This document shows positions 3,964 through 53,327 of a DNA stretch of 64,000 nucleotides, piece after piece. The notes below the pieces were generated by a model. That model did not search any database. It was not told the DNA's origin and was given only the letters and a program-made list of their open reading frames with translations. Within the stretch, counting starts at the first letter, position 1, and each line of letters opens with the position of its first letter. Made by a program: the position numbers and the translations under genes. Location of the stretch: positions 30,037-94,036 of the forward strand of contig DATJXE010000006.1 in the NCBI GenBank assembly GCA_035500505.1, written 5' to 3'. The stretch is from Minisyncoccota bacterium (GTDB lineage Bacteria; Patescibacteriota; Minisyncoccia; Phycocordibacterales; UBA2100).

Positions 3964-4764
3964 TTATCGTCTTCCGCTCCACGCGCCGCGGTGTTGGCGC
4001 ATCCTGTCCAGCGAGGAGCCGGCTTCTTCCCGTATTTCCTTGCCGGTCAATGCGAGGAACGCCGCCTCGAGCGAATTCGTATTGGTCTGCTTTTTAAGTT
4101 CCGTGCCAGAACCGACGGCGATGATGGTGCCGTGGTCGATGATGGCAATGCGCTCGGCGTTGCCATCGGCCTCCTCCATGTAGTGCGTCGTGAAAAAGAC
4201 CGTGACGCTTTCTTCTTTGTTGAGTTTGTGGAGGTACTCCCAAATGTGGTTGCGCGTCTGCGGATCCAAGCCCAATGTCGGCTCGTCGAGGAATATTATT
4301 TTCGGATGGTGCAGAAGCCCGCGCGCGACCTCCAGTCGCCGCTTCATCCCGCCGGAAAAATCACGAACATAGCTCTGCGCGCGATCATCGAGTTCGACGA
4401 ATTTCAACAATTCCGTGACGCGCGAGCGACGGATCGCGGCCGGGACGCCGTAGAGGATGCCGTGGAAATCCATATTTTCGTAAGCGGTAAGGTCGTCATC
4501 GAGCGACGGGTCCTGGAACACGATGCCGAAAGAACGACGCACCTCGTCGGGCTCTTGCACCGGGTCGTGCCCGTCGACCATGATCGAACCCGAGGTCGGC
4601 GACAGGAGCGTGGTCAGCATCTTGATGGTCGTCGACTTTCCGGCGCCGTTGGGGCCGAGGAACGCGAAACGCTCGCCTTTGGCGACGTTGAAAGAAATGC
4701 CTTTTACCGCCTCGAAATCACCAAAGGATTTCTTGAGGTTCTGTACGTCGATGATGTTAGCCAT
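3964..4764 (-). CDS. ABC transporter ATP-binding protein
   Basis: Walker A GPNGAGKST, ABC signature FSGGMKRRL, and Walker B IIFLDEPTLGLD are present. The likely start is MANIIDVQNLKK at 4764; the track ORF extends upstream to 4806. Confidence 0.9.
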   Translation of the reverse strand: MANIIDVQNLKKSFGDFEAVKGISFNVAKGERFAFLGPNGAGKSTTIKMLTTLLSPTSGSIMVDGHDPVQEPDEVRRSFGIVFQDPSLDDDLTAYENMDFHGILYGVPAAIRRSRVTELLKFVELDDRAQSYVRDFSGGMKRRLEVARGLLHHPKIIFLDEPTLGLDPQTRNHIWEYLHKLNKEESVTVFFTTHYMEEADGNAERIAIIDHGTIIAVGSGTELKKQTNTNSLEAAFLALTGKEIREEAGSSLDRMRQHRGAWSGRR

Positions 4765-4823
4765 TGTGTTGGGGCACAGTATACACTTCCGCGAAAATTT
4801 CGCCAAGATTCATGTGCCTCAGA

Positions 4824-4973
4824 TCAGATCGGATTTCGGCCTTGAATAATGCGTATAAGGACGAGGATGATAGCGATCACGAGGAGCACGTGAATAAAGC
4901 CGCCTATCGTGTACGCGGTGATGATCCCGAGAAGCCACAAAATGACGAGGATAGCAGCGATCGTGAGTAACAT
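4824..4973 (-). CDS. Small membrane protein (lmo0937-like family, 49 aa)
   Basis: Reverse-strand translation gives MLLTIAAILVILWLLGIITAYTIGGFIHVLLVIAIILVLIRIIQGRNPI*. It falls below the ORF-track size cut-off and sits in an otherwise empty 230-bp intergenic gap. Confidence 0.45.
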   Translation of the reverse strand: MLLTIAAILVILWLLGIITAYTIGGFIHVLLVIAIILVLIRIIQGRNPI

Positions 4974-5039
4974 ACGAGAAAAACGTAATGAATTACTAAG
5001 CTCATATTTTCAGATGAACTCTATGAAAACGGAGTGAAC

Positions 5040-5681
5040 TTAGCCGAGATGCGCGTGGTCGTTCCAGACCAGAAGCCACCAGCTCCGATGCGGATCGCTG
5101 GGGTCGTATTTGAGGACCGAGATACCGGTGTTCCGCGTTCTCCATCCCCACTCGAATGGCGCAAAGTCGTTAGCCGTCATGTTTTCGCCATACAACATGC
5201 GCGCAATGAGCATTTTCGTAAAAAATCCGTGCCCGACGACCAGAATGTCCTCTTCCGAACGCTGCTCGAGGAATCGCAACGCTTGTCCCGCGCGCTCTTT
5301 CATTTCTTCGAACGTCTCCGTGCCTTCTACTTTCTCGCTCCCGGGCTCGCACGAGGACCGTACTGCCGTGTCGTAGAGCTTTTTCGCGTCCGGATCGGAC
5401 CTCGACTTTCCCACCAAAGACGTGGGCATCGTGCGTTCAGTGAAAAGTTCACTGTATTCGATCGGGTGTCCGGTTTCTTTCACTATCATCTCGGCCGTCT
5501 GTTTCGTCCGTTCGAACGGGCTCGCGATAATGACATCGAACGTCAGCTTCTTCGCGCGTTTTGCCAGGTAGCGCGACTGTTCTTTGCCCAACTCGGTCAG
5601 GGGCGGCGGCGCGTCGTACATGAACGCGCCGCTCACGTTTATCTCACTTTCGCCGTGCCGCACGAGGTAGATGGTTTTCAT
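5040..5681 (-). CDS. Histidine phosphatase family protein (phosphoglycerate-mutase-like)
   Basis: It begins MKTIYLVRHGESEIN, which is the RHG catalytic motif, and is 213 aa long. Confidence 0.75.
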   Translation of the reverse strand: MKTIYLVRHGESEINVSGAFMYDAPPPLTELGKEQSRYLAKRAKKLTFDVIIASPFERTKQTAEMIVKETGHPIEYSELFTERTMPTSLVGKSRSDPDAKKLYDTAVRSSCEPGSEKVEGTETFEEMKERAGQALRFLEQRSEEDILVVGHGFFTKMLIARMLYGENMTANDFAPFEWGWRTRNTGISVLKYDPSDPHRSWWLLVWNDHAHLG

Positions 5682-5690
5682 TCTCCCATC

Positions 5691-6929
5691 TTACAGCACG
5701 AACCTGCCGTCCTTGTAGATGATTTTCGTTCTGCCGTTCTTTAGATGCGCGGTCACGGTGCGCTTGGTCGTCGAAATGATGTCGGTGTGGACCGAAGAGT
5801 CGTTGAAGCCGAGCCGCTCGGCTTCTTTGGTCGTGAGTTTCGAAACGTCGCCCGCGTAGGTGTCGCGATAGCTCATGCCGAGCGCCATGTGCGTATTGCC
5901 GTACGTGCCGCCCATATTCTCGTCGAAGAGCGTTTCTGCCATGAACTTCGTGATGCGCGAGTGGCGGCTGTCGGTGAGCGAGTATTCTCCCACTTTGTCC
6001 GCATTCTTCGTCGCTATCATTTGTTTGAGAAGTTTTTCATTGGTCTTCGCGGAGCTTTTTACGACGCGACCATTTTTGAACCATAACTGAATGCCGGTGA
6101 TCTTGTTCGAATAACGGTAGAGCGGCTGGTTGAAACGTATCCAGCCGTTCGTACCGCGCCAATCGGGTGAGGTGAATATCTCGAAACTCGGGATGTTGCG
6201 CCCGGAACCCGCATGCCATGCGCGCTTCTCGCCGAGCGTGAACCAAATGTCCATATCGGGACCGACCGCGTGGAGCTTGTCTATCTTCGGCGAGAGCTTG
6301 TTCAAACGGCTTCGGTATTTCTCGATATCGCGGTACACCTGTTTCCATTTTTTTATTGGATCTTTTTCATCGAGAAAACAGGCTTTGATTATCTGGTCCC
6401 AGTATGCCTTTTCGGAAAGTCCCGCTTCGCGCGCCATCGCAGGGGTGCCGTACATGGCGATGGTCCAGGTGAATTTGCCTTTCCATTCCTTCTGATTCAG
6501 CCAGTCTTTGAAGGGCTTGAGGGTCACTCCGCGCTGCATGATCTTCTTCGGGTCGATACCTTTGAGCGCATGCGGGTCGGCATCGGCAAGGATATAGATC
6601 GAGTGGTCGATCTGCGCGGCGAGACCTTTCAGGTATGCTTCCGGGAAGAACGTTATCTGATGGTCCTGCGCGTGTTCGTAGAAAAAACGAGTGAAGCTCT
6701 CCGCGCGACGCTTGTCGCCTTGCTCGTCATCCGGTGCGTAATTCGATATCACGTGGCCGCCCGCGAGCACGATGGCGTTGCAGACCGCATTAAAGAGCGG
6801 TTTCGCAGACTCCGAGGAAGAAACGCGCACAACGTCGCCTTTTCGTATCCCGTTGCCGCCACCGAGCGCGAAGTTGACCAACACGTCCGCGTACTTTTTT
6901 AAGATTTTTTCATCAGGTGTGTATGACAT
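5691..6929 (-). CDS. Aminopeptidase, M29 (AmpS/PepS thermophilic metalloprotease) family
   Basis: About 410 aa. KYADVLVNFALGGGNGIRKGDVVRVSS...PLFNAVCNAIVLAGG matches the M29 N-terminus. The probable start is MSYTPDEK; the track ORF begins at 6977. Confidence 0.65.
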   Translation of the reverse strand: MSYTPDEKILKKYADVLVNFALGGGNGIRKGDVVRVSSSESAKPLFNAVCNAIVLAGGHVISNYAPDDEQGDKRRAESFTRFFYEHAQDHQITFFPEAYLKGLAAQIDHSIYILADADPHALKGIDPKKIMQRGVTLKPFKDWLNQKEWKGKFTWTIAMYGTPAMAREAGLSEKAYWDQIIKACFLDEKDPIKKWKQVYRDIEKYRSRLNKLSPKIDKLHAVGPDMDIWFTLGEKRAWHAGSGRNIPSFEIFTSPDWRGTNGWIRFNQPLYRYSNKITGIQLWFKNGRVVKSSAKTNEKLLKQMIATKNADKVGEYSLTDSRHSRITKFMAETLFDENMGGTYGNTHMALGMSYRDTYAGDVSKLTTKEAERLGFNDSSVHTDIISTTKRTVTAHLKNGRTKIIYKDGRFVL

Positions 6930-7026
6930 GCGGTGTAGAGTACTCGGCGGCGGCTCTTTTGTCGAGACAACGTACAAAACGCCCCGAGGGGGCGTTTTGT
7001 GCTGCGTCCAGTCGAAAAAATGTTCT

Positions 7027-10422: not shown

Positions 10423-10827
10423 CTACCGACCTTCAAGTATCCTGAGTATCTTCTCCAACTTATCGTCCTCGATGCGCGCAAGCCGCTTTTGCAGGTCTTC
10501 TATTTCGAGTTTGGCGCGGACGTTGGTCTCATAGTCAGCCTCGGCTTGGCGCCTGTCGCGATCGGCCTGCCTGTTCTGCGATTGCATGATGATGGGCGCG
10601 GCGTAGGCCGCCTGCGTCGAGAAGAGAAGATTCAACAGGATGAAGGGATAGACGTCCCAGTGGTAGAACCAGCCGGCGAGATTGAGCGCGACCCACAGAA
10701 CGACGAACGTGGACTGCGAGATGATGAAGCCCCAGGAACCCATGCGTTTCGCGACCGTGTCGGCGAGACGGTCGCCGAACGAGAGGCTCTCGACATGTTT
10801 TTGGTGCCAGTTCTTTTCCGTACCCAT
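10423..10827 (-). CDS. DUF1003-family membrane protein
   Basis: GSWGFIISQSTFVVLWVALN...YPFILLNLLFSTQAAYAAPIIMQSQNRQ matches the DUF1003 signature, with a C-terminal coiled coil. Confidence 0.6.
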   Translation of the reverse strand: MGTEKNWHQKHVESLSFGDRLADTVAKRMGSWGFIISQSTFVVLWVALNLAGWFYHWDVYPFILLNLLFSTQAAYAAPIIMQSQNRQADRDRRQAEADYETNVRAKLEIEDLQKRLARIEDDKLEKILRILEGR

Positions 10828-16122: not shown

Positions 16123-16575
16123 CTAGCTCTTTTTGGCCCTGGGGGTAACGGTTTTATTGCCATCAGAGGTCACTACGATCTTCCCTTCGGGTGCGGTCCA
16201 ATCGGTAAAGCGCCACCACGTAGGCGTGAACATGAACATGACCGCGTTCGGGTCGTGGAGCTTACCTTGTTTTTTCGGAAACTTTGCCAAATAAACCATT
16301 TTCAGCTTCTCGTCCGCAAGAAGCTGCGCGGTACCGTCAAGCTGGAGAGTCTTCATCTCGCTTTCGTTCGACCCAACGACCATGGAGGCGCGGGAAATTT
16401 CTCTACCAACGAGCGCCTCGGTTTTTCGATACCCCTTTTCCGTTTCAAATATGAACACGAGTTCGTCCGTGTTCGCAAAATGTACGGTCGCGGCGTGGGG
16501 AGAACCGTCCAGCATTTCTATGGCAAAGACGCCCACTCGTTGTCCTTTCAGATATTCAAGAATCTCTGGGGTCAT
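16123..16575 (-). CDS. Pyridoxamine 5'-phosphate oxidase-like FMN-binding family protein
   Basis: 150 aa. The pattern GQRVGVFAIEMLDGSPHAATVHFA...ELVFIF is typical of the PNPOx-like split barrel. Confidence 0.5.
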   Translation of the reverse strand: MTPEILEYLKGQRVGVFAIEMLDGSPHAATVHFANTDELVFIFETEKGYRKTEALVGREISRASMVVGSNESEMKTLQLDGTAQLLADEKLKMVYLAKFPKKQGKLHDPNAVMFMFTPTWWRFTDWTAPEGKIVVTSDGNKTVTPRAKKS

Positions 16576-16650
16576 GCCGTAATACTACCCTACTGACGGA
16601 GCTTGGTACGACATTGGAATCTTTTTGTAATGAGGGAATGAGCTGATCAG

Positions 16651-16962
16651 TCAGACTTTTCGGCGAGATTTGGATCGTTTCTTGAGAACCCAGCGCACCG
16701 AGCGACTTATCGATTTGTCGGTGCGGTGGATGCAACCGATCCAACAACAGGGCCGGCGCATTCCTTCGATGAGCTCTGATACCACTCTCCTCACATGATC
16801 CTTTCGCGTCTCTGCCGTTTTGACCGAAATGGTCCAGCAGATCCATTCGTTGCGCGCAAGAGGAGTGATGTCCTCCCACGCCGCACGCGCTTTTGGCGAG
16901 GCGACGAGCGCCTTCTTCAAGTCTGCAGGCAAGGTATGCGCGGTTCCCGAAGATAGTTTCAT
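16651..16962 (-). CDS. YdeI/OmpD-associated family protein
   Basis: ARNEWICWTISVKTAETRKDHVRRVVSELIEGMRRPCCW matches the family signature. Confidence 0.55.
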   Translation of the reverse strand: MKLSSGTAHTLPADLKKALVASPKARAAWEDITPLARNEWICWTISVKTAETRKDHVRRVVSELIEGMRRPCCWIGCIHRTDKSISRSVRWVLKKRSKSRRKV

Positions 16963-17023
16963 CTACTCTATTGTAACAAATCCTCCTTTTTTAACTGGGG
17001 TCTGGGACGACGTTGGAACCTTT

Positions 17024-17368
17024 TTAGACAAGAAAGTGGCTGTAGAGAGTAATTGCTAAGGCGCAGACTACAAAAGCTGTCGAGCCGATTGCCCAGAAAG
17101 AATTCGGCAAGTTCCGCAAAGGACTTGGCGCATAGTAACCTAACCACGTCGCATCGTAATTTATTTCAGGATGTATTTGCTTTCGTAAAGTGAATTCCCA
17201 CGTGCTCAAAATGCAGCACCTAAAGACTGCGTATGATGCCGCGGTAACAACCAAAACTGCAAAATAAATTTGCCACCAACTTGGTATGAGCCACCCAAAC
17301 AAAATAAAAAGCAGTATTGCTACGTGAAAAAATAATATTACTTCAGCGAGAATTCTTTTGCTGGTCAT
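17024..17368 (-). CDS. Small polytopic membrane protein (DUF2784-like?), low-GC gene
   Basis: The ORF is trimmed to the ATG at 17368 (MTSKRILAEV...) because the longer ORF overlaps the tRNA. Local GC is about 42% against about 60% in the surroundings. Confidence 0.45.
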   Translation of the reverse strand: MTSKRILAEVILFFHVAILLFILFGWLIPSWWQIYFAVLVVTAASYAVFRCCILSTWEFTLRKQIHPEINYDATWLGYYAPSPLRNLPNSFWAIGSTAFVVCALAITLYSHFLV

Positions 17369-17380
17369 GAATTTCGTTAA

Positions 17381-17451
17381 CTGGGGGACATGGACTCGAA
17401 CCATGATTCACAGCTCCAAAGGCTGCTGTCCTACCATTAGACGATCCCCCA
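17381..17451 (-). tRNA. tRNA-Gln (anticodon TTG)
   Basis: The reverse complement reads TGGGGGATCGTCTAATGGTAGGACAGCAGCCTTTGGAGCTGTGAATCATGGTTCGAGTCCATGTCCCCCAG. It has a 7-bp acceptor stem with a U1-A72 pair, the GGTTCGAGTCC T-arm, and a CTTTGGA anticodon loop. CCA is not encoded. Confidence 0.85.
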
Positions 17452-17529
17452 AACACGACTGATAGTAACAAAAAAACGGCTCGTTGGAACGCGCTGGCCA
17501 CTGAATCTTGTTTCGGGTAAAATCGACCG

Positions 17530-19740
17530 ATGCGGCAGATAGCAATGCTTACGGCCGCGGCTATCGGAGCCGTTTGCATCATCGCGGGGCTCTTCACGCT
17601 CAACCAGGTCGACCAGGAAGAACTCGACCTGACCGCGCGGTTGCAATCCCACTCGCAGATTGTCGCCGACAGCCTCGTCGACGAAGTCAGCCCTGCCTTC
17701 CGCTCCTACGCGACCAGCACGGTCCAAACGACCGTGGAAAAGTTCGCCAACGAGGAACGCGTCGTCGGCATCGGCGTGTACGACGCGAACGGCAATCCGG
17801 TCGCGCTCTCGGATGGACTTCCCCAGAACGTCAGCGGAGAGAACGTCATCCCGACCTCGATGGACAGCGACGCGGGCACCGGCGCTTACATCGGCAGCAG
17901 CCAGGGCGCGCTCTATGTCTTCTCCGACCCTATTACCGTTGACAACCACGTCATCGGCGCACTCGTCGTCGTGCAAAGCTCCCAATACATCAACGACGCG
18001 GTGACGGGCATCTGGAAGGACGCGCTCGTGCACCTCTTCCTCGAGATCATCCTCTTTGCGGGAGCCATCATTTTCATCGTGCGTTTCGTGTTCCGCCGAG
18101 CCATAACCGATGTCGCGGAATCGGTGCGCTCGATACGCGCGGGCGGCTCCGGCGACGAGCGGGGCGGCTCCGGCATGAGCATATTCCGGCCGCTCACGAG
18201 CGAGATAGCGAAAATGTCGACGAGTTTGCGCGATGCGCGCAGGGCCGCGAGCGAAGAAGCGCGCATGCGCCTGGAGAAACTCGACTCCCCTTGGACCGCC
18301 GAGCGCCTCAAGGAATTCATCAAAGCCTACCTCAAGGACCGGCCGATATATGTCGTCTCCAACGCCGAACCGTACGTGCACAACAAAGTAAAAAATAAGA
18401 TCGAATGGTCGGTGCCCGCCGGCGGTGTCATCACCGCGATAGAGCCGGTGATGGAGGCATGCGGCGGCACCTGGATCGCGCAAGGGAGCGGCGACGCCGA
18501 CAAGGCGGCAGCCAACAAAGAGGGCAAGCTGCGTGTGCCGCCTGAGGAGCCGAAATACACGCTCAAGCGCGTCTTCCTTTCGCCGAAAGAACGCAAAGGC
18601 TACTACGACGGCTTTTCCAACGAAGCGCTCTGGCCGTTGTGCCATCTGGCACACGTGCGCCCGCAATTCCGCAAAGAGGATTGGGCCGAATATCGCAAGG
18701 TCAACGGCATGTTCGCAAAAACGCTGCTTGAAGAGATCCGGCACGTCGAACGCCCGATAGTGCTCGTGCAGGACTACCACCTCGCGCTCGTCCCCGCGCT
18801 CGTCAAAAAAAGCCGGCCCGACGCGCAGGTCGCCATGTTCTGGCACATCCCGTGGCCCTCGGCCGCGCAATTTTCCATTTGCCCCTGGCGCAAAGAGTTG
18901 CTCGAGGGCATGCTCGGCGCCGACCTGGTCGGCTTCCACACGCAGCAGTACTGCAACAACTTCATGGATACCGTCGCCGCCGAGATCGAAGCGCGCATCG
19001 ACTTGGAGCGCTTCGCGGTCGTGCGCGGCGGGCACGAAACGCGCGTCGAACCCTTCCCCATTTCCATCGCCTTCCCGGGGAACGCCGAGATAGAAACCCC
19101 GCCCGACAGATCGATGCTCGACCAGCTCGGCATCAAAACGCCGCTTTTGGCGCTCGGCGTCGACCGGCTCGATTACATCAAAGGCATTCCGGAGCGCTTC
19201 CGCGGCGTCGAATTCTTGCTCAAAATGAACCCCGAATACCGCGAAAAATTCACACTGCTGCAGATAGCATCCCCGACGCGGCACGGCGTCGAGAAGTTCG
19301 AAGAATACGCGCAACAGGTGTTCACGGAAGCCGAGCGCATCAACGAGGCCTACGGCACCGAAACCTGGAAGCCCATCGTCATCGAGCACAAAAGCTACTC
19401 GCACTCGGATTTGCGCAAGCTCTATCAGCTCGCCGACGTGTGTCTCGTCACATCGCTCCACGACGGCATGAACCTCGTCGCCAAAGAATACGTCGCTGCG
19501 CGCTCGCAGGAGAACGGCGTCCTCATCTTGAGCCACTTCGCCGGCGCCTCGCGCGATCTCCCCACCGCGCTCAGCGTCAACCCGTACAGCGCGGAAGAAA
19601 CCGCCGAGGCGCTCAGGCTCGCCTTCACGATGCCCGAAAGCGAACAGCACCGCCGGATGAAGCAGATGCGCGCGGCGGTGCGTGATTACAACGTGTACCG
19701 CTGGTCGGCGGAGATCATCAAGGCGCTCGCGAAGCTGTGA
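17530..19740 (+). CDS. otsA: Alpha,alpha-trehalose-phosphate synthase (GT20) fused to an N-terminal two-TM sensor and HAMP-like module
   Basis: The C-terminal approximately 480 aa are a clear OtsA (YDGFSNEALWPLCH..., VQDYHLALVPALV..., FWHIPWP...). The N-terminal approximately 250 aa contain TM1 (LTAAAIGAVCIIAGLF), a roughly 140-aa extracytoplasmic domain, TM2 (LFLEIILFAGAIIFIVRFVF), and an amphipathic HAMP-like linker. Confidence 0.85.
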   Translation: MRQIAMLTAAAIGAVCIIAGLFTLNQVDQEELDLTARLQSHSQIVADSLVDEVSPAFRSYATSTVQTTVEKFANEERVVGIGVYDANGNPVALSDGLPQNVSGENVIPTSMDSDAGTGAYIGSSQGALYVFSDPITVDNHVIGALVVVQSSQYINDAVTGIWKDALVHLFLEIILFAGAIIFIVRFVFRRAITDVAESVRSIRAGGSGDERGGSGMSIFRPLTSEIAKMSTSLRDARRAASEEARMRLEKLDSPWTAERLKEFIKAYLKDRPIYVVSNAEPYVHNKVKNKIEWSVPAGGVITAIEPVMEACGGTWIAQGSGDADKAAANKEGKLRVPPEEPKYTLKRVFLSPKERKGYYDGFSNEALWPLCHLAHVRPQFRKEDWAEYRKVNGMFAKTLLEEIRHVERPIVLVQDYHLALVPALVKKSRPDAQVAMFWHIPWPSAAQFSICPWRKELLEGMLGADLVGFHTQQYCNNFMDTVAAEIEARIDLERFAVVRGGHETRVEPFPISIAFPGNAEIETPPDRSMLDQLGIKTPLLALGVDRLDYIKGIPERFRGVEFLLKMNPEYREKFTLLQIASPTRHGVEKFEEYAQQVFTEAERINEAYGTETWKPIVIEHKSYSHSDLRKLYQLADVCLVTSLHDGMNLVAKEYVAARSQENGVLILSHFAGASRDLPTALSVNPYSAEETAEALRLAFTMPESEQHRRMKQMRAAVRDYNVYRWSAEIIKALAKL

Positions 19741-19741
19741 T

Positions 19742-20518
19742 ATGGAGCACGCGCGTCGCGCTCTCGAACATATCGGGCGCCGCATGTCTCGCGGGCAGCA
19801 GCTCGTGCTCTTCCTCGATTTCGACGGCACGCTCGCGCCCATCGTACGAGACCCCTCGAAAGCGCGCATGGCGAAGCGCACGCACACGCTCGTCGAGCGA
19901 CTGGCACGGCGCGTGCCGCTTTACATTGTGACAGGACGTTCGTTGCGTGACATACGAAAACGCGCTCGCATACGCGGAGCGCGGTATGCCGGCAACCATG
20001 GCATGGAATGGAGCCGCGGTGCCGCGACCGAGAGTGTCCGCGTTTCGAGCGCCGCGCAAAAGGATGTTCGCGACGCGCTGCGGGCACTGCGCCCCCTCCG
20101 ACGGTACCGAGGCGTTTTTATTGAAGACAAGAAAATATCGGTCGCGTTCCATTACCGCGGTGTTTCGCGGCGTGAGATGCCGGAAGTCATCCAAACAGCG
20201 CACCGCGTGCTTGCTCCAATCCTCAAACGCGGCCGCATCGAGGCACTGCAGCAAAAGAAGCTGCTCGACGTGCGCCCGAAGGGCTGGCACAAGGGCGGCT
20301 TTGTCCGTTTGGTCATGCGGCACATGCCGAAGAACAGCGTCGCGGTCTATATCGGCGATGATGCGACGGACGAGGACGCGTTCGGCGCGCTCCGCGCGAG
20401 CGAGATCGGCATTCGCGTCGGTAAACGTTCTTCAAGTCGCGCGGGGTACTACCTTTCTTCGCAGCGCGCCATGGACGGCTTTCTATTGCGGCTCGCCGCA
20501 CAGATCGACGACCGCTAG
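19742..20518 (+). CDS. otsB: Trehalose-6-phosphate phosphatase (HAD family)
   Basis: LFLDFDGTLAPIV is HAD motif I, and GDDATDEDAF is motif III. The ATG is 2 nt after the otsA stop. Confidence 0.85.
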   Translation: MEHARRALEHIGRRMSRGQQLVLFLDFDGTLAPIVRDPSKARMAKRTHTLVERLARRVPLYIVTGRSLRDIRKRARIRGARYAGNHGMEWSRGAATESVRVSSAAQKDVRDALRALRPLRRYRGVFIEDKKISVAFHYRGVSRREMPEVIQTAHRVLAPILKRGRIEALQQKKLLDVRPKGWHKGGFVRLVMRHMPKNSVAVYIGDDATDEDAFGALRASEIGIRVGKRSSSRAGYYLSSQRAMDGFLLRLAAQIDDR

Positions 20519-53025: not shown

Positions 53026-53163
53026 CAACAAGTGCGGAGGGTGAGGGATAGGAACTACTGGGAAACCCTCGGTTTTCCCAATCCTTCCTCCACGGGAAAA
53101 CAGCATGTTTTCCCGACCCCATTCTGGTTCGAATCCCCCACTCCACCGTATTCGCTTTGCTCT

Positions 53164-53248
53164 CGGAGGGTGAGGGATTCGAACCCTCGGTGCCTTGCGA
53201 CACACACGCTTTCCAAGCGTGCGCACTAGACCACTATGCGAACCCTCC
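53164..53248 (-). tRNA. tRNA-Ser (anticodon GGA), type II with long variable arm
   Basis: The reverse complement reads GGAGGGTTCGCATAGTGGTCTAGTGCGCACGCTTGGAAAGCGTGTGTGTCGCAAGGCACCGAGGGTTCGAATCCCTCACCCTCCG, with acceptor, D, anticodon (CACGC/GCGTG around TTGGAAA), variable, and T arms resolved. Confidence 0.85.
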
Positions 53249-53327
53249 AATCATGAGGAGTATACGCGAGAGTTTGTTTCTACAAAAGGAGGCGGCCACA
53301 CCAAGGAAGGGCGTGGCCGAATCTTAT

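Follow-up and report, generated by a model that had tools for sequence, protein, structure and literature searches.

A variable array of single-gene units at the 3' end of tRNA-Gln in a Patescibacteria genome, with a possible origin by site-specific insertion

The tRNA-Gln locus and its genes

We analysed a stretch of 64,000 nucleotides (nt) from the genome of a Minisyncoccota bacterium (assembly GCA_035500505.1, contig DATJXE010000006.1, positions 30,037 to 94,036 of the forward strand; hereafter the window), in which an intact tRNA-Gln(UUG) gene is followed on its 3' side by small genes separated by copies of a conserved motif. The tRNA gene lies on the minus strand at 17381..17451 (Rfam RF00005, 61.4 bits; ARAGORN bounds 17380..17452) and has no encoded CCA. 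Reading away from it, the order is tRNA-Gln, a DUF2784 gene, motif copy A, a YdeI gene, motif copy B, and a PNPOx-like gene, over about 1.26 kb, with more variable DNA probably lying beyond the PNPOx unit. The tRNA terminates in CCCCCAG, its last base at 17381, and this terminus would be the anchor of the array on the side of the bacterial attachment site (attB). Foreign DNA starts 1 to 4 nt past the last tRNA base and leaves the tRNA intact.

A first-pass annotation had described part of this locus as a tiny islet, a low-GC membrane-protein gene bracketed by a 10-bp direct repeat at the tRNA 3' end. The repeat is genuine: the 10-mer TTAACTGGGG occurs at exactly two sites in the window, 16991-17000 and 17377-17386, and at 0.02 expected occurrences from shuffles it is not a frequent string. 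The proximal copy (17377..17386) consists of the last 6 nt of the tRNA (CCCCAG, including the discriminator) and 4 nt of trailer, reading CCCCAG/TTAA on the minus strand. Pairs of 10-mer direct repeats within 400 nt number 103 in the window vs about 33 in shuffles, and the significance of this one is its position on the tRNA 3' end and its membership in a longer conserved motif, not the bare repeat.

The gene between the repeats (17024..17368, minus strand) encodes a membrane protein of 114 amino acids (aa) that matches DUF2784 (Pfam PF10861) at 34.4 bits against a gathering cut-off of 29.7, with residues 5-108 aligned to positions 1-105 of the 109 in the model. The single membrane-protein gene of the first-pass annotation therefore stands, but its length of 126 aa does not; that version of the open reading frame (ORF; 17024..17404) extends into tRNA-Gln, and its start is probably not the real one. 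The low GC content reported earlier is equally borne out, at 41.7% for the gene and 42.3% for 17001-17376 vs 58.3% for the whole window, and 17001-17376 is the lowest-GC 376-nt stretch of the window, about 4 standard deviations below the mean. GC content at third codon positions (GC3) is about 0.43-0.45 vs 0.62-0.82 in ordinary genes nearby, a foreign composition. HMMER retrieved 79 relatives of the protein, the nearest of which (P0001) is 55% identical. Because the ATG falls 12 nt beyond the tRNA 3' end and no promoter-like site occupies that gap, the gene is probably co-transcribed with tRNA-Gln.

The second gene encodes a YdeI/OmdA-family protein of 103 aa (Pfam; 16651..16962, minus strand; GC 0.55) and is preceded by an extended -10-like element, TGTTACAAT. 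The third encodes a PNPOx-like protein of 150 aa (Pfam; 16123..16575, minus strand; GC 0.52, GC3 0.62). We found no recognisable motif behind the PNPOx unit in the window, whereas its homologue in genome L159 (related genomes and contigs are given here by L numbers) has motif copies on both sides. GC content along the three units is thus 0.42, 0.55, and 0.52, and 0.60 beyond them. When the DUF2784 and YdeI proteins of the window were looked up by exact match, no contig on record was found.

The invariant 9-mer of the motif core (GTTCCAACG on the minus strand, 17482-17490) is also present some 30 nt ahead of the 5' end of tRNA-Gln, at the -35 position of a promoter with the extended -10 element TGTTACTAT; this upstream 9-mer is not conserved in relatives.

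A conserved motif at the distal edge of each unit

On sequence comparison, the distal 10-mer is the 3' edge of a conserved 35-60-nt motif that is not tRNA, and not the displaced tRNA end for which it had first been taken. In the orientation of the tRNA, the motif consensus is cgTT(g/c)CAAAAAG GTTCCAAC.TCGTAC (CAA|ACG)AC.CCCAG tcc, or in short form cgTTsCAAAAAG-GTTCCAACnTCGTAC-nnnACnCCCAG, with a conserved block of about 34 nt and an extension of 25 nt; the 10-mer is made up of the final 6 nt of the motif and 4 nt more. Copy A (HMM match 16987..17065, core 16995-17025, minus strand; nhmmer E = 8e-12) reads ...CTAAAAAGGTTCCAACGTCGTCCCAGACCCCAG/TTAA, overlaps the DUF2784 stop codon, and has the distal 10-mer at 16991-17000 as its 3' edge. 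Copy B (HMM match 16597..16659, core 16593-16627, minus strand; nhmmer E = 2e-11) reads ...CATTACAAAAAGATTCCAATGTCGTACCAAGCTCCGTCAG and runs from the YdeI stop codon to 17 nt ahead of the PNPOx ATG. A 17-nt string beside the distal 10-mer (17003-17019) is repeated at 16604-16620 and twice more in L007, and all four copies of it lie between genes, downstream of tRNA-Gln.

We ran a motif profile (nhmmer) on 554 kb of non-viral sequence from the candidate phyla radiation (CPR) and counted hits at E <= 0.01. The 23 hits correspond to 20 non-redundant copies in eight genomes: two in the window, three in L007 (identical to L154), five in L143, four in L150, three in L159, and one each in L149, L155, and L016. 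E-values across genomes range from 1e-11 to 1e-17. Every one of the 20 copies is on the tRNA strand, 0.3 to 3.3 kb downstream of a tRNA-Gln, and the 554 kb scanned hold no copy away from tRNA-Gln loci. In most arrays the motif terminates in CCCCCAG, identical to the tRNA end, and the next 4 to 9 bases after the tRNA agree, genome by genome, with those after a motif copy (CCCCAGTTAA in the window, CAGCAAAT(T/A)AAG in L159, CCCAGTCCG in L007 and L150). The distal direct repeat shares with the tRNA only CCCCAG (6-7 nt) and 4 trailer nt; the usual repeat of a tRNA island is 15 nt or more.

The arrays have a regular anatomy. A single ORF occupies each interval between motifs, about 0.4 to 0.9 kb long; most of these ORFs share the strand of the tRNA, and three run the opposite way. 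Where gene and tRNA share a strand, the motif starts within about 0-60 nt of the gene's stop codon, sometimes overlapping it. From the motif it is 5-86 nt to the following start codon and 15-27 nt to -10-like elements. GC content of the units is 0.42-0.52 vs 0.54-0.58 for the genomes. Their products include DUF2784, YdeI, PNPOx, SET-domain-like, low-molecular-weight-phosphatase-like, DUF5946, GtrA-like, and GIY-YIG proteins and a helicase with INT_rpt repeats, and are overall mostly of unknown function. The DUF2784 gene is accordingly not a tiny 376-bp island on its own, as it had been described, but the tRNA-proximal unit of the DUF2784-YdeI-PNPOx array.

Two arrays hold genes that merit separate mention. 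L159 carries two genes for GIY-YIG nuclease-domain proteins inside its array (6748-7014, 88 aa; 10443-10682, 79 aa), the first of which has a motif copy immediately at its stop codon; these genes are possible candidates for a link to movement of the units. In L155, a gene for a 630-aa ResIII/DEAD helicase with C-terminal "integrase repeat unit" repeats (PF14882; 12559-14451) fills the first 2-kb unit after tRNA-Gln and is followed by a motif copy.

Turnover at the tRNA-Gln 3' end

The genes on the upstream side of the tRNA, for SerRS, a 302-aa protein, Dus, a 397-aa protein, and DnaX, are retained in relatives with 72-86% amino acid identity. This shared order breaks off precisely at the tRNA-Gln 3' end, and the content downstream differs in every genome. 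A metagenome scan with the tRNA core yielded 16 more contigs carrying the same tRNA-Gln, and the bases that follow ...CCCCCAG differ in almost all of them. Among relatives, only YdeI and PNPOx recur downstream, at differing positions, and DUF2784 is absent from the site in all relatives compared; L007, for instance, has the same tRNA-Gln followed by a different gene, for a SET-domain-like protein. That gene order stops at the tRNA 3' end and that no relative has DUF2784 there indicates that, in at least eight genomes of the Candidatus Kaiserbacteria group, this end is a hot spot of insertion and turnover, in line with the integration at a tRNA end proposed in the first-pass annotation.

The 5' side of the tRNA varies as well. 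In the window, L143, L007, and L153, dnaX and tRNA-Gln are separated by the trehalose genes otsA and otsB (17530-20518 in the window), and otsA, next to the tRNA, assigns the organism to Candidatus Kaiserbacteria; the two genes are absent there in L147, L150, L151, L155, and L156, where dnaX abuts the tRNA. Because the otsBA pair is present in some genomes and absent in these five, the 5' side, as judged from gene order, is also a variable junction.

The gene family of the YdeI unit is also found 3' of tRNA-Gln in L007, L149, L153, L159, and L161; YdeI lies downstream of tRNA-Gln in six genomes and near tRNA-His in L160. About 8000 homologues were retrieved, the top 120 at 73-89% identity, across Patescibacteria and beyond, and between the window and L159 YdeI is 86% identical vs only 53% for dnaX. 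Given this disparity and the thousands of close homologues, the pattern fits a horizontally moving gene, and YdeI is apparently an unusually conserved small gene that is highly mobile. The homology of the YdeI unit between the window and L161 begins right after CCCCAGTTAA. The motif was not found in the contexts of the YdeI homologues in L160 and L162-L165, nor in L161, which has the tRNA-Gln.

Structure and identity of the motif

A series of possible identities for the motif was considered and rejected. As a copy of the tRNA T-arm and acceptor it aligns only in GGTTC and CCCCAG, with an indel of 5-6 nt. RNAalifold found 0 pairs in a consensus RNA structure. A stem named by hand, CGTTG/CAACG, is paired in 64% of cells, not above controls: 23 of 500 shuffles reach its percentage of pairing, and 16 of 500 its covariation score. 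Folding of the motif as single-stranded DNA gave z values from -0.93 to +1.97, not below shuffles, and Rfam searches of the window, L143, L150, and L159 recovered only tRNA and no family for the motif.

Matches in collections of mobile DNA were no more productive. The 19-nt core had more than 120 hits in IMG/VR (L023-L142), nearly all of them to one high-GC phage gene family encoding ..VWDDVGTFDGRPWRG.., a match that is a coding coincidence; two more specific motif patterns had 0 hits in IMG/VR, and blastn searches of phage and plasmid collections found no motif. Promoter readings also failed. As a sigma-70 promoter, TTGAC-N17-CAAAAA has a poor -10 element, and with TTCCAA or GTACCA as the -35 element the spacers are 15-27 nt; sigma-54 and extracytoplasmic function (ECF) readings have the wrong spacing by inspection. 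We found no literature on this motif or on such arrays in Patescibacteria.

A proposed tandem array of integrase-less cassettes

We read these loci, with moderate confidence, as tandem arrays of integrase-less cassettes bounded by attachment (att)-type sites and built by site-specific insertion at the tRNA end. A cassette would have three parts, namely a short leader, a single accessory gene, and the conserved site of 35-60 nt, which ends in ...ACnCCCAG. Such units would enter by recombination between a motif site and the tRNA end, with the crossover falling in CCCCAG and about 4 following bases; each entry would push older units outward, and the site of every unit would stay at its distal edge. 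The DUF2784 islet would then be the tRNA-proximal unit and probably the newest. The asymmetric, unstructured part of the motif (GTTCCAAC.TCGTAC, in which one helical turn separates GTTCCAA from GTACCAA) resembles the protein-binding arm of a double-stranded att site, and may be the element-side binding region of a recombinase that would be encoded elsewhere and act in trans. On this model, the expected empty-site junction is tRNA...CCCCAG followed by AAAAGGAGG...YdeI, without 16995-17380, and the expected junction of a circular cassette is ...GTCGTCCCAGACCCCAG followed by TTAACGAAATTCATG.

Several observations speak for this model. The motif is linked exclusively to tRNA-Gln and has a single orientation; it shares the CCCCCAG end with the tRNA, and the trailers agree. 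We also count in its favour the loss of conserved gene order at the tRNA, the one-ORF-plus-motif anatomy, the point at which homology of the YdeI unit begins, the composition of the cassettes, the apparent transfer of YdeI, and the partial-tRNA repeats described below.

A number of observations weigh against it. No recombinase gene was found near the 18 tRNA-Gln loci inspected, in the gene table of L159, or among those ORFs of the window that were tested; this search, by regular expression and Pfam, covered about 47 ORFs or gene-table entries and was not exhaustive for the window. The first-pass remark that no integrase is left agrees with this result, none having been found nearby in the ORFs tested. 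IMG/VR and the phage and plasmid collections held no autonomous element or attP contig with the motif, although CPR elements may be missing there. The identity between tRNA and motif is only 6-7 nt, and the motif keeps its CCCAG end in L159 and L016 even though the tRNA-Gln there finishes in GGGCAG or CGGCAG. Of the tRNA-Gln loci with sufficient sequence 3' of the tRNA, about half lack the motif. Three motif copies precede reverse-oriented genes, and many cassettes have a -10-like element of their own, unlike integron cassettes. Neither an excised circle nor an empty site was observed directly.

A stronger form of the model is a dedicated integron-like capture platform in Kaiserbacteria, and perhaps in other Patescibacteria, which we offer as a tentative and somewhat unlikely extension. 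The tRNA-Gln 3' end would serve as its primary site, single-gene cassettes would carry an unstructured, sequence-conserved 35-60-nt site in place of a hairpin attC, and the recombinase would be encoded elsewhere in the genome.

Alternative explanations

The alternative that survives best, though we think it unlikely, is a flexible island turned over by homologous recombination, in which the motif is a functional or regulatory element travelling with accessory genes and the 10-mer match is incidental. The motif could then be an operator, for example of the form GTTC-N7-GT(A/T)C, like the alphaproteobacterial LexA box, or with 7+4-bp repeats, like OmpR/PhoB boxes. Passages in two papers (PMC8565304 and PMC7739468, citing Sanchez-Osuna 2017) document LexA with direct-repeat motifs and report it for Patescibacteria. 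The motif has some of the hallmarks that such a role would entail: GTTCCAA and GTACCAA stand 11 bp apart, L016 has a copy of precisely the form GTTC-N7-GTTC, six copies have TTGAC precisely 17 nt ahead of CAAAAAG, and many are followed by -10-like elements; the recombinase that the cassette model calls for, moreover, was not found. An operator, however, should not be confined to one kind of locus, and here all 20 copies stand behind tRNA-Gln and none is dispersed in the 554 kb. The conserved block with its extension is longer than an operator, its spacing to start codons and to -10-like elements varies over the ranges given above, and three copies stand ahead of reverse-oriented genes. The motif is tied to the preceding stop codon and not to the promoter of the next gene, and its repeats 1 and 3 come within one mismatch of GTTCCAA in only 6/18 and 8/18 copies.

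Decay of one larger integrative element to a 376-bp remnant, with attL as the tRNA end and attR as a displaced copy of that end, was the history favoured in the first-pass annotation, and we consider it improbable. The 10-bp repeat at the tRNA end, the low GC, and the lack of an integrase are all as this history would have them, and true partial-tRNA repeats do occur in L157, in L016, and at a tRNA-Ser in the window. The distal repeat, however, sits inside a non-tRNA motif that recurs 400 bp farther on, behind YdeI, and in seven other genomes; its tRNA-derived part is only 6-7 nt; and random decay would not repeatedly yield units of one gene plus one motif. In our view the distribution of the motif largely refutes this explanation. 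Decay would be one history among several for such a locus, but eight of eight arrays consist of one-gene-plus-motif units, which cassettes fit better.

We regard as more doubtful still the idea that the motif is a coding fossil, made up of the final 20 or so codons (antisense LGVWYDVGTFLERxEExVN*) of a gene spanning attP, as when an SSV-type integrase is split on integration and leaves a C-terminal fragment at each old junction. Several variable positions do fall at every third base, the spacing is free of indels, and the antisense frame is open with conservative substitutions in many copies (others have stop or frameshift defects). The 3-base periodicity, however, is not significant (permutation p = 0.12-0.34), and the sense frame has the same third positions, which makes the signal ambiguous. 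Among 5.8 billion proteins searched with a profile, the sole match was the spurious ORF of the window itself, a conserved N-terminal extension was not found, and no integrase-like ORF abuts any junction.

That the repeat arose by chance beside a native gene whose low GC reflects the amino acid make-up of a membrane protein is extremely improbable, for in spite of the abundance of 10-mer repeat pairs in the window, this one falls exactly on the tRNA 3' end and inside a motif with the nhmmer E-values given above, the GC3 of 0.43 vs about 0.72 is inexplicable by amino acid content, and the gene is absent at this site in all relatives.

Other tRNA-end repeats and low-GC stretches

True partial copies of the tRNA-Gln 3' end occur in L157 (819-840/964-985) and L016 (about 802-818/992-1010), 145-190 nt downstream of tRNA-Gln and separate from the conserved motif. 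In the window, the last 15 nt (ATCCCTCACCCTCCG) of a tRNA-Ser(GGA) gene (53163..53249, minus strand) lie at 53164-53178 and recur at 53035-53049. The two copies, 129 nt apart, bracket about 114 nt of filler that holds an antisense T-arm-like fragment (GGTGGAGTGGGGGATTCGAACC), and they form a classic partial-tRNA, att-type repeat. These true partial-tRNA repeats therefore mark tRNA 3' ends as recombination sites in these organisms.

Two further stretches of the window are low in GC. An ORF of 177 aa without a Pfam match (41688-42221, minus strand; GC 0.47, GC3 0.44), which immediately follows a purH-like gene (42229..43197), is a further candidate for inserted foreign DNA, and in a third stretch, at about 4650-5090, GC falls below 0.47 in 376-nt windows.

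Significance and comparison with known systems

The CPR, or Patescibacteria, are for the most part uncultured bacteria whose tiny genomes are devoid of most classical mobile elements, and the ways in which they acquire accessory genes are poorly understood. The motif and tRNA-Gln are searchable anchors with which cassettes could be harvested from metagenomes, as attC-based cassette PCR does for integrons, and the tRNA-Gln end and the motif together are a substrate pair for identifying a recombinase.

Among described systems, the islands and tycheposons of Prochlorococcus are close in layout. In the tycheposon islands, the stacked elements have partial tRNAs between them, and remnants that hold only cargo persist (10.1101/2020.12.28.424599). 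The likenesses to the present arrays are seeding on the 3' side of a tRNA, stacked units in which newer ones push older ones outward, short repeats at old junctions, cargo-only remnants without an integrase, and a small, streamlined host genome with few classical mobile elements. The junction repeats of tycheposons, however, are partial tRNAs of about 40 nt, and some genomes carry integrase-bearing elements; here we find 6-7 tRNA-like nt in a non-tRNA motif, single-gene units of 0.4-0.9 kb, and no integrase element in 18 loci.

Integron arrays are alike in a different way. There too, a repeat resembling a recombination site comes straight after a single ORF and can overlap its stop codon, units are stacked by a fixed primary site, and their diverse, mostly unknown functions differ between relatives. 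In an integron, however, one expects intI and attI, which were not found here; the head of the present array is tRNA-Gln, with otsA, otsB, and dnaX upstream. The integron attC is a hairpin conserved in structure, with RYYYAAC/GTTRRRY cores, whereas the present motif is conserved in sequence and does not fold. The tRNA anchor, the -10-like elements that many cassettes carry, and the three reversed units are further differences.

Three other systems share individual features. Cis-mobilisable elements (CIMEs), as in ICESt1/CIME of Streptococcus thermophilus, are integrase-less, att-flanked segments in tandem that can be mobilised only by the recombinase of a related element and derive from identifiable integrative and conjugative elements (ICEs) with the same att site. 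This accretion and mobilisation at one integration locus is like the arrangement described here, although our units are much smaller and have no known parent element. She and colleagues reportedly described, in 2001, the capture of genes next to archaeal tRNA genes through repeated SSV-type integration, in which direct repeats and gene fragments are said to bracket the captured genes; that route requires an integrase gene spanning attP, and no such protein or fragment could be shown here. The pdif modules of Acinetobacter plasmids are gene modules without a recombinase of their own, flanked by 28-bp XerC/XerD sites in inverted pairs and moved by housekeeping recombinases. They resemble the present units as small recombinase-less modules between short conserved sites, but the sites here are direct, asymmetric, chromosomal, and linked to a tRNA.

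We class the tRNA-Gln locus as a variant of the tRNA-anchored integration hot spot. We keep it apart from both tycheposon-type islands and integrons because it is without a tRNA repeat of at least 15 nt, an integrase, intI, attI, or a hairpin attC, the features by which those systems are defined. If its units are only decayed elements, the locus extends tycheposon-like island building to the CPR; if it is true that they are mobile in trans, it would represent a second, independently built solution to the problem that integrons solve.

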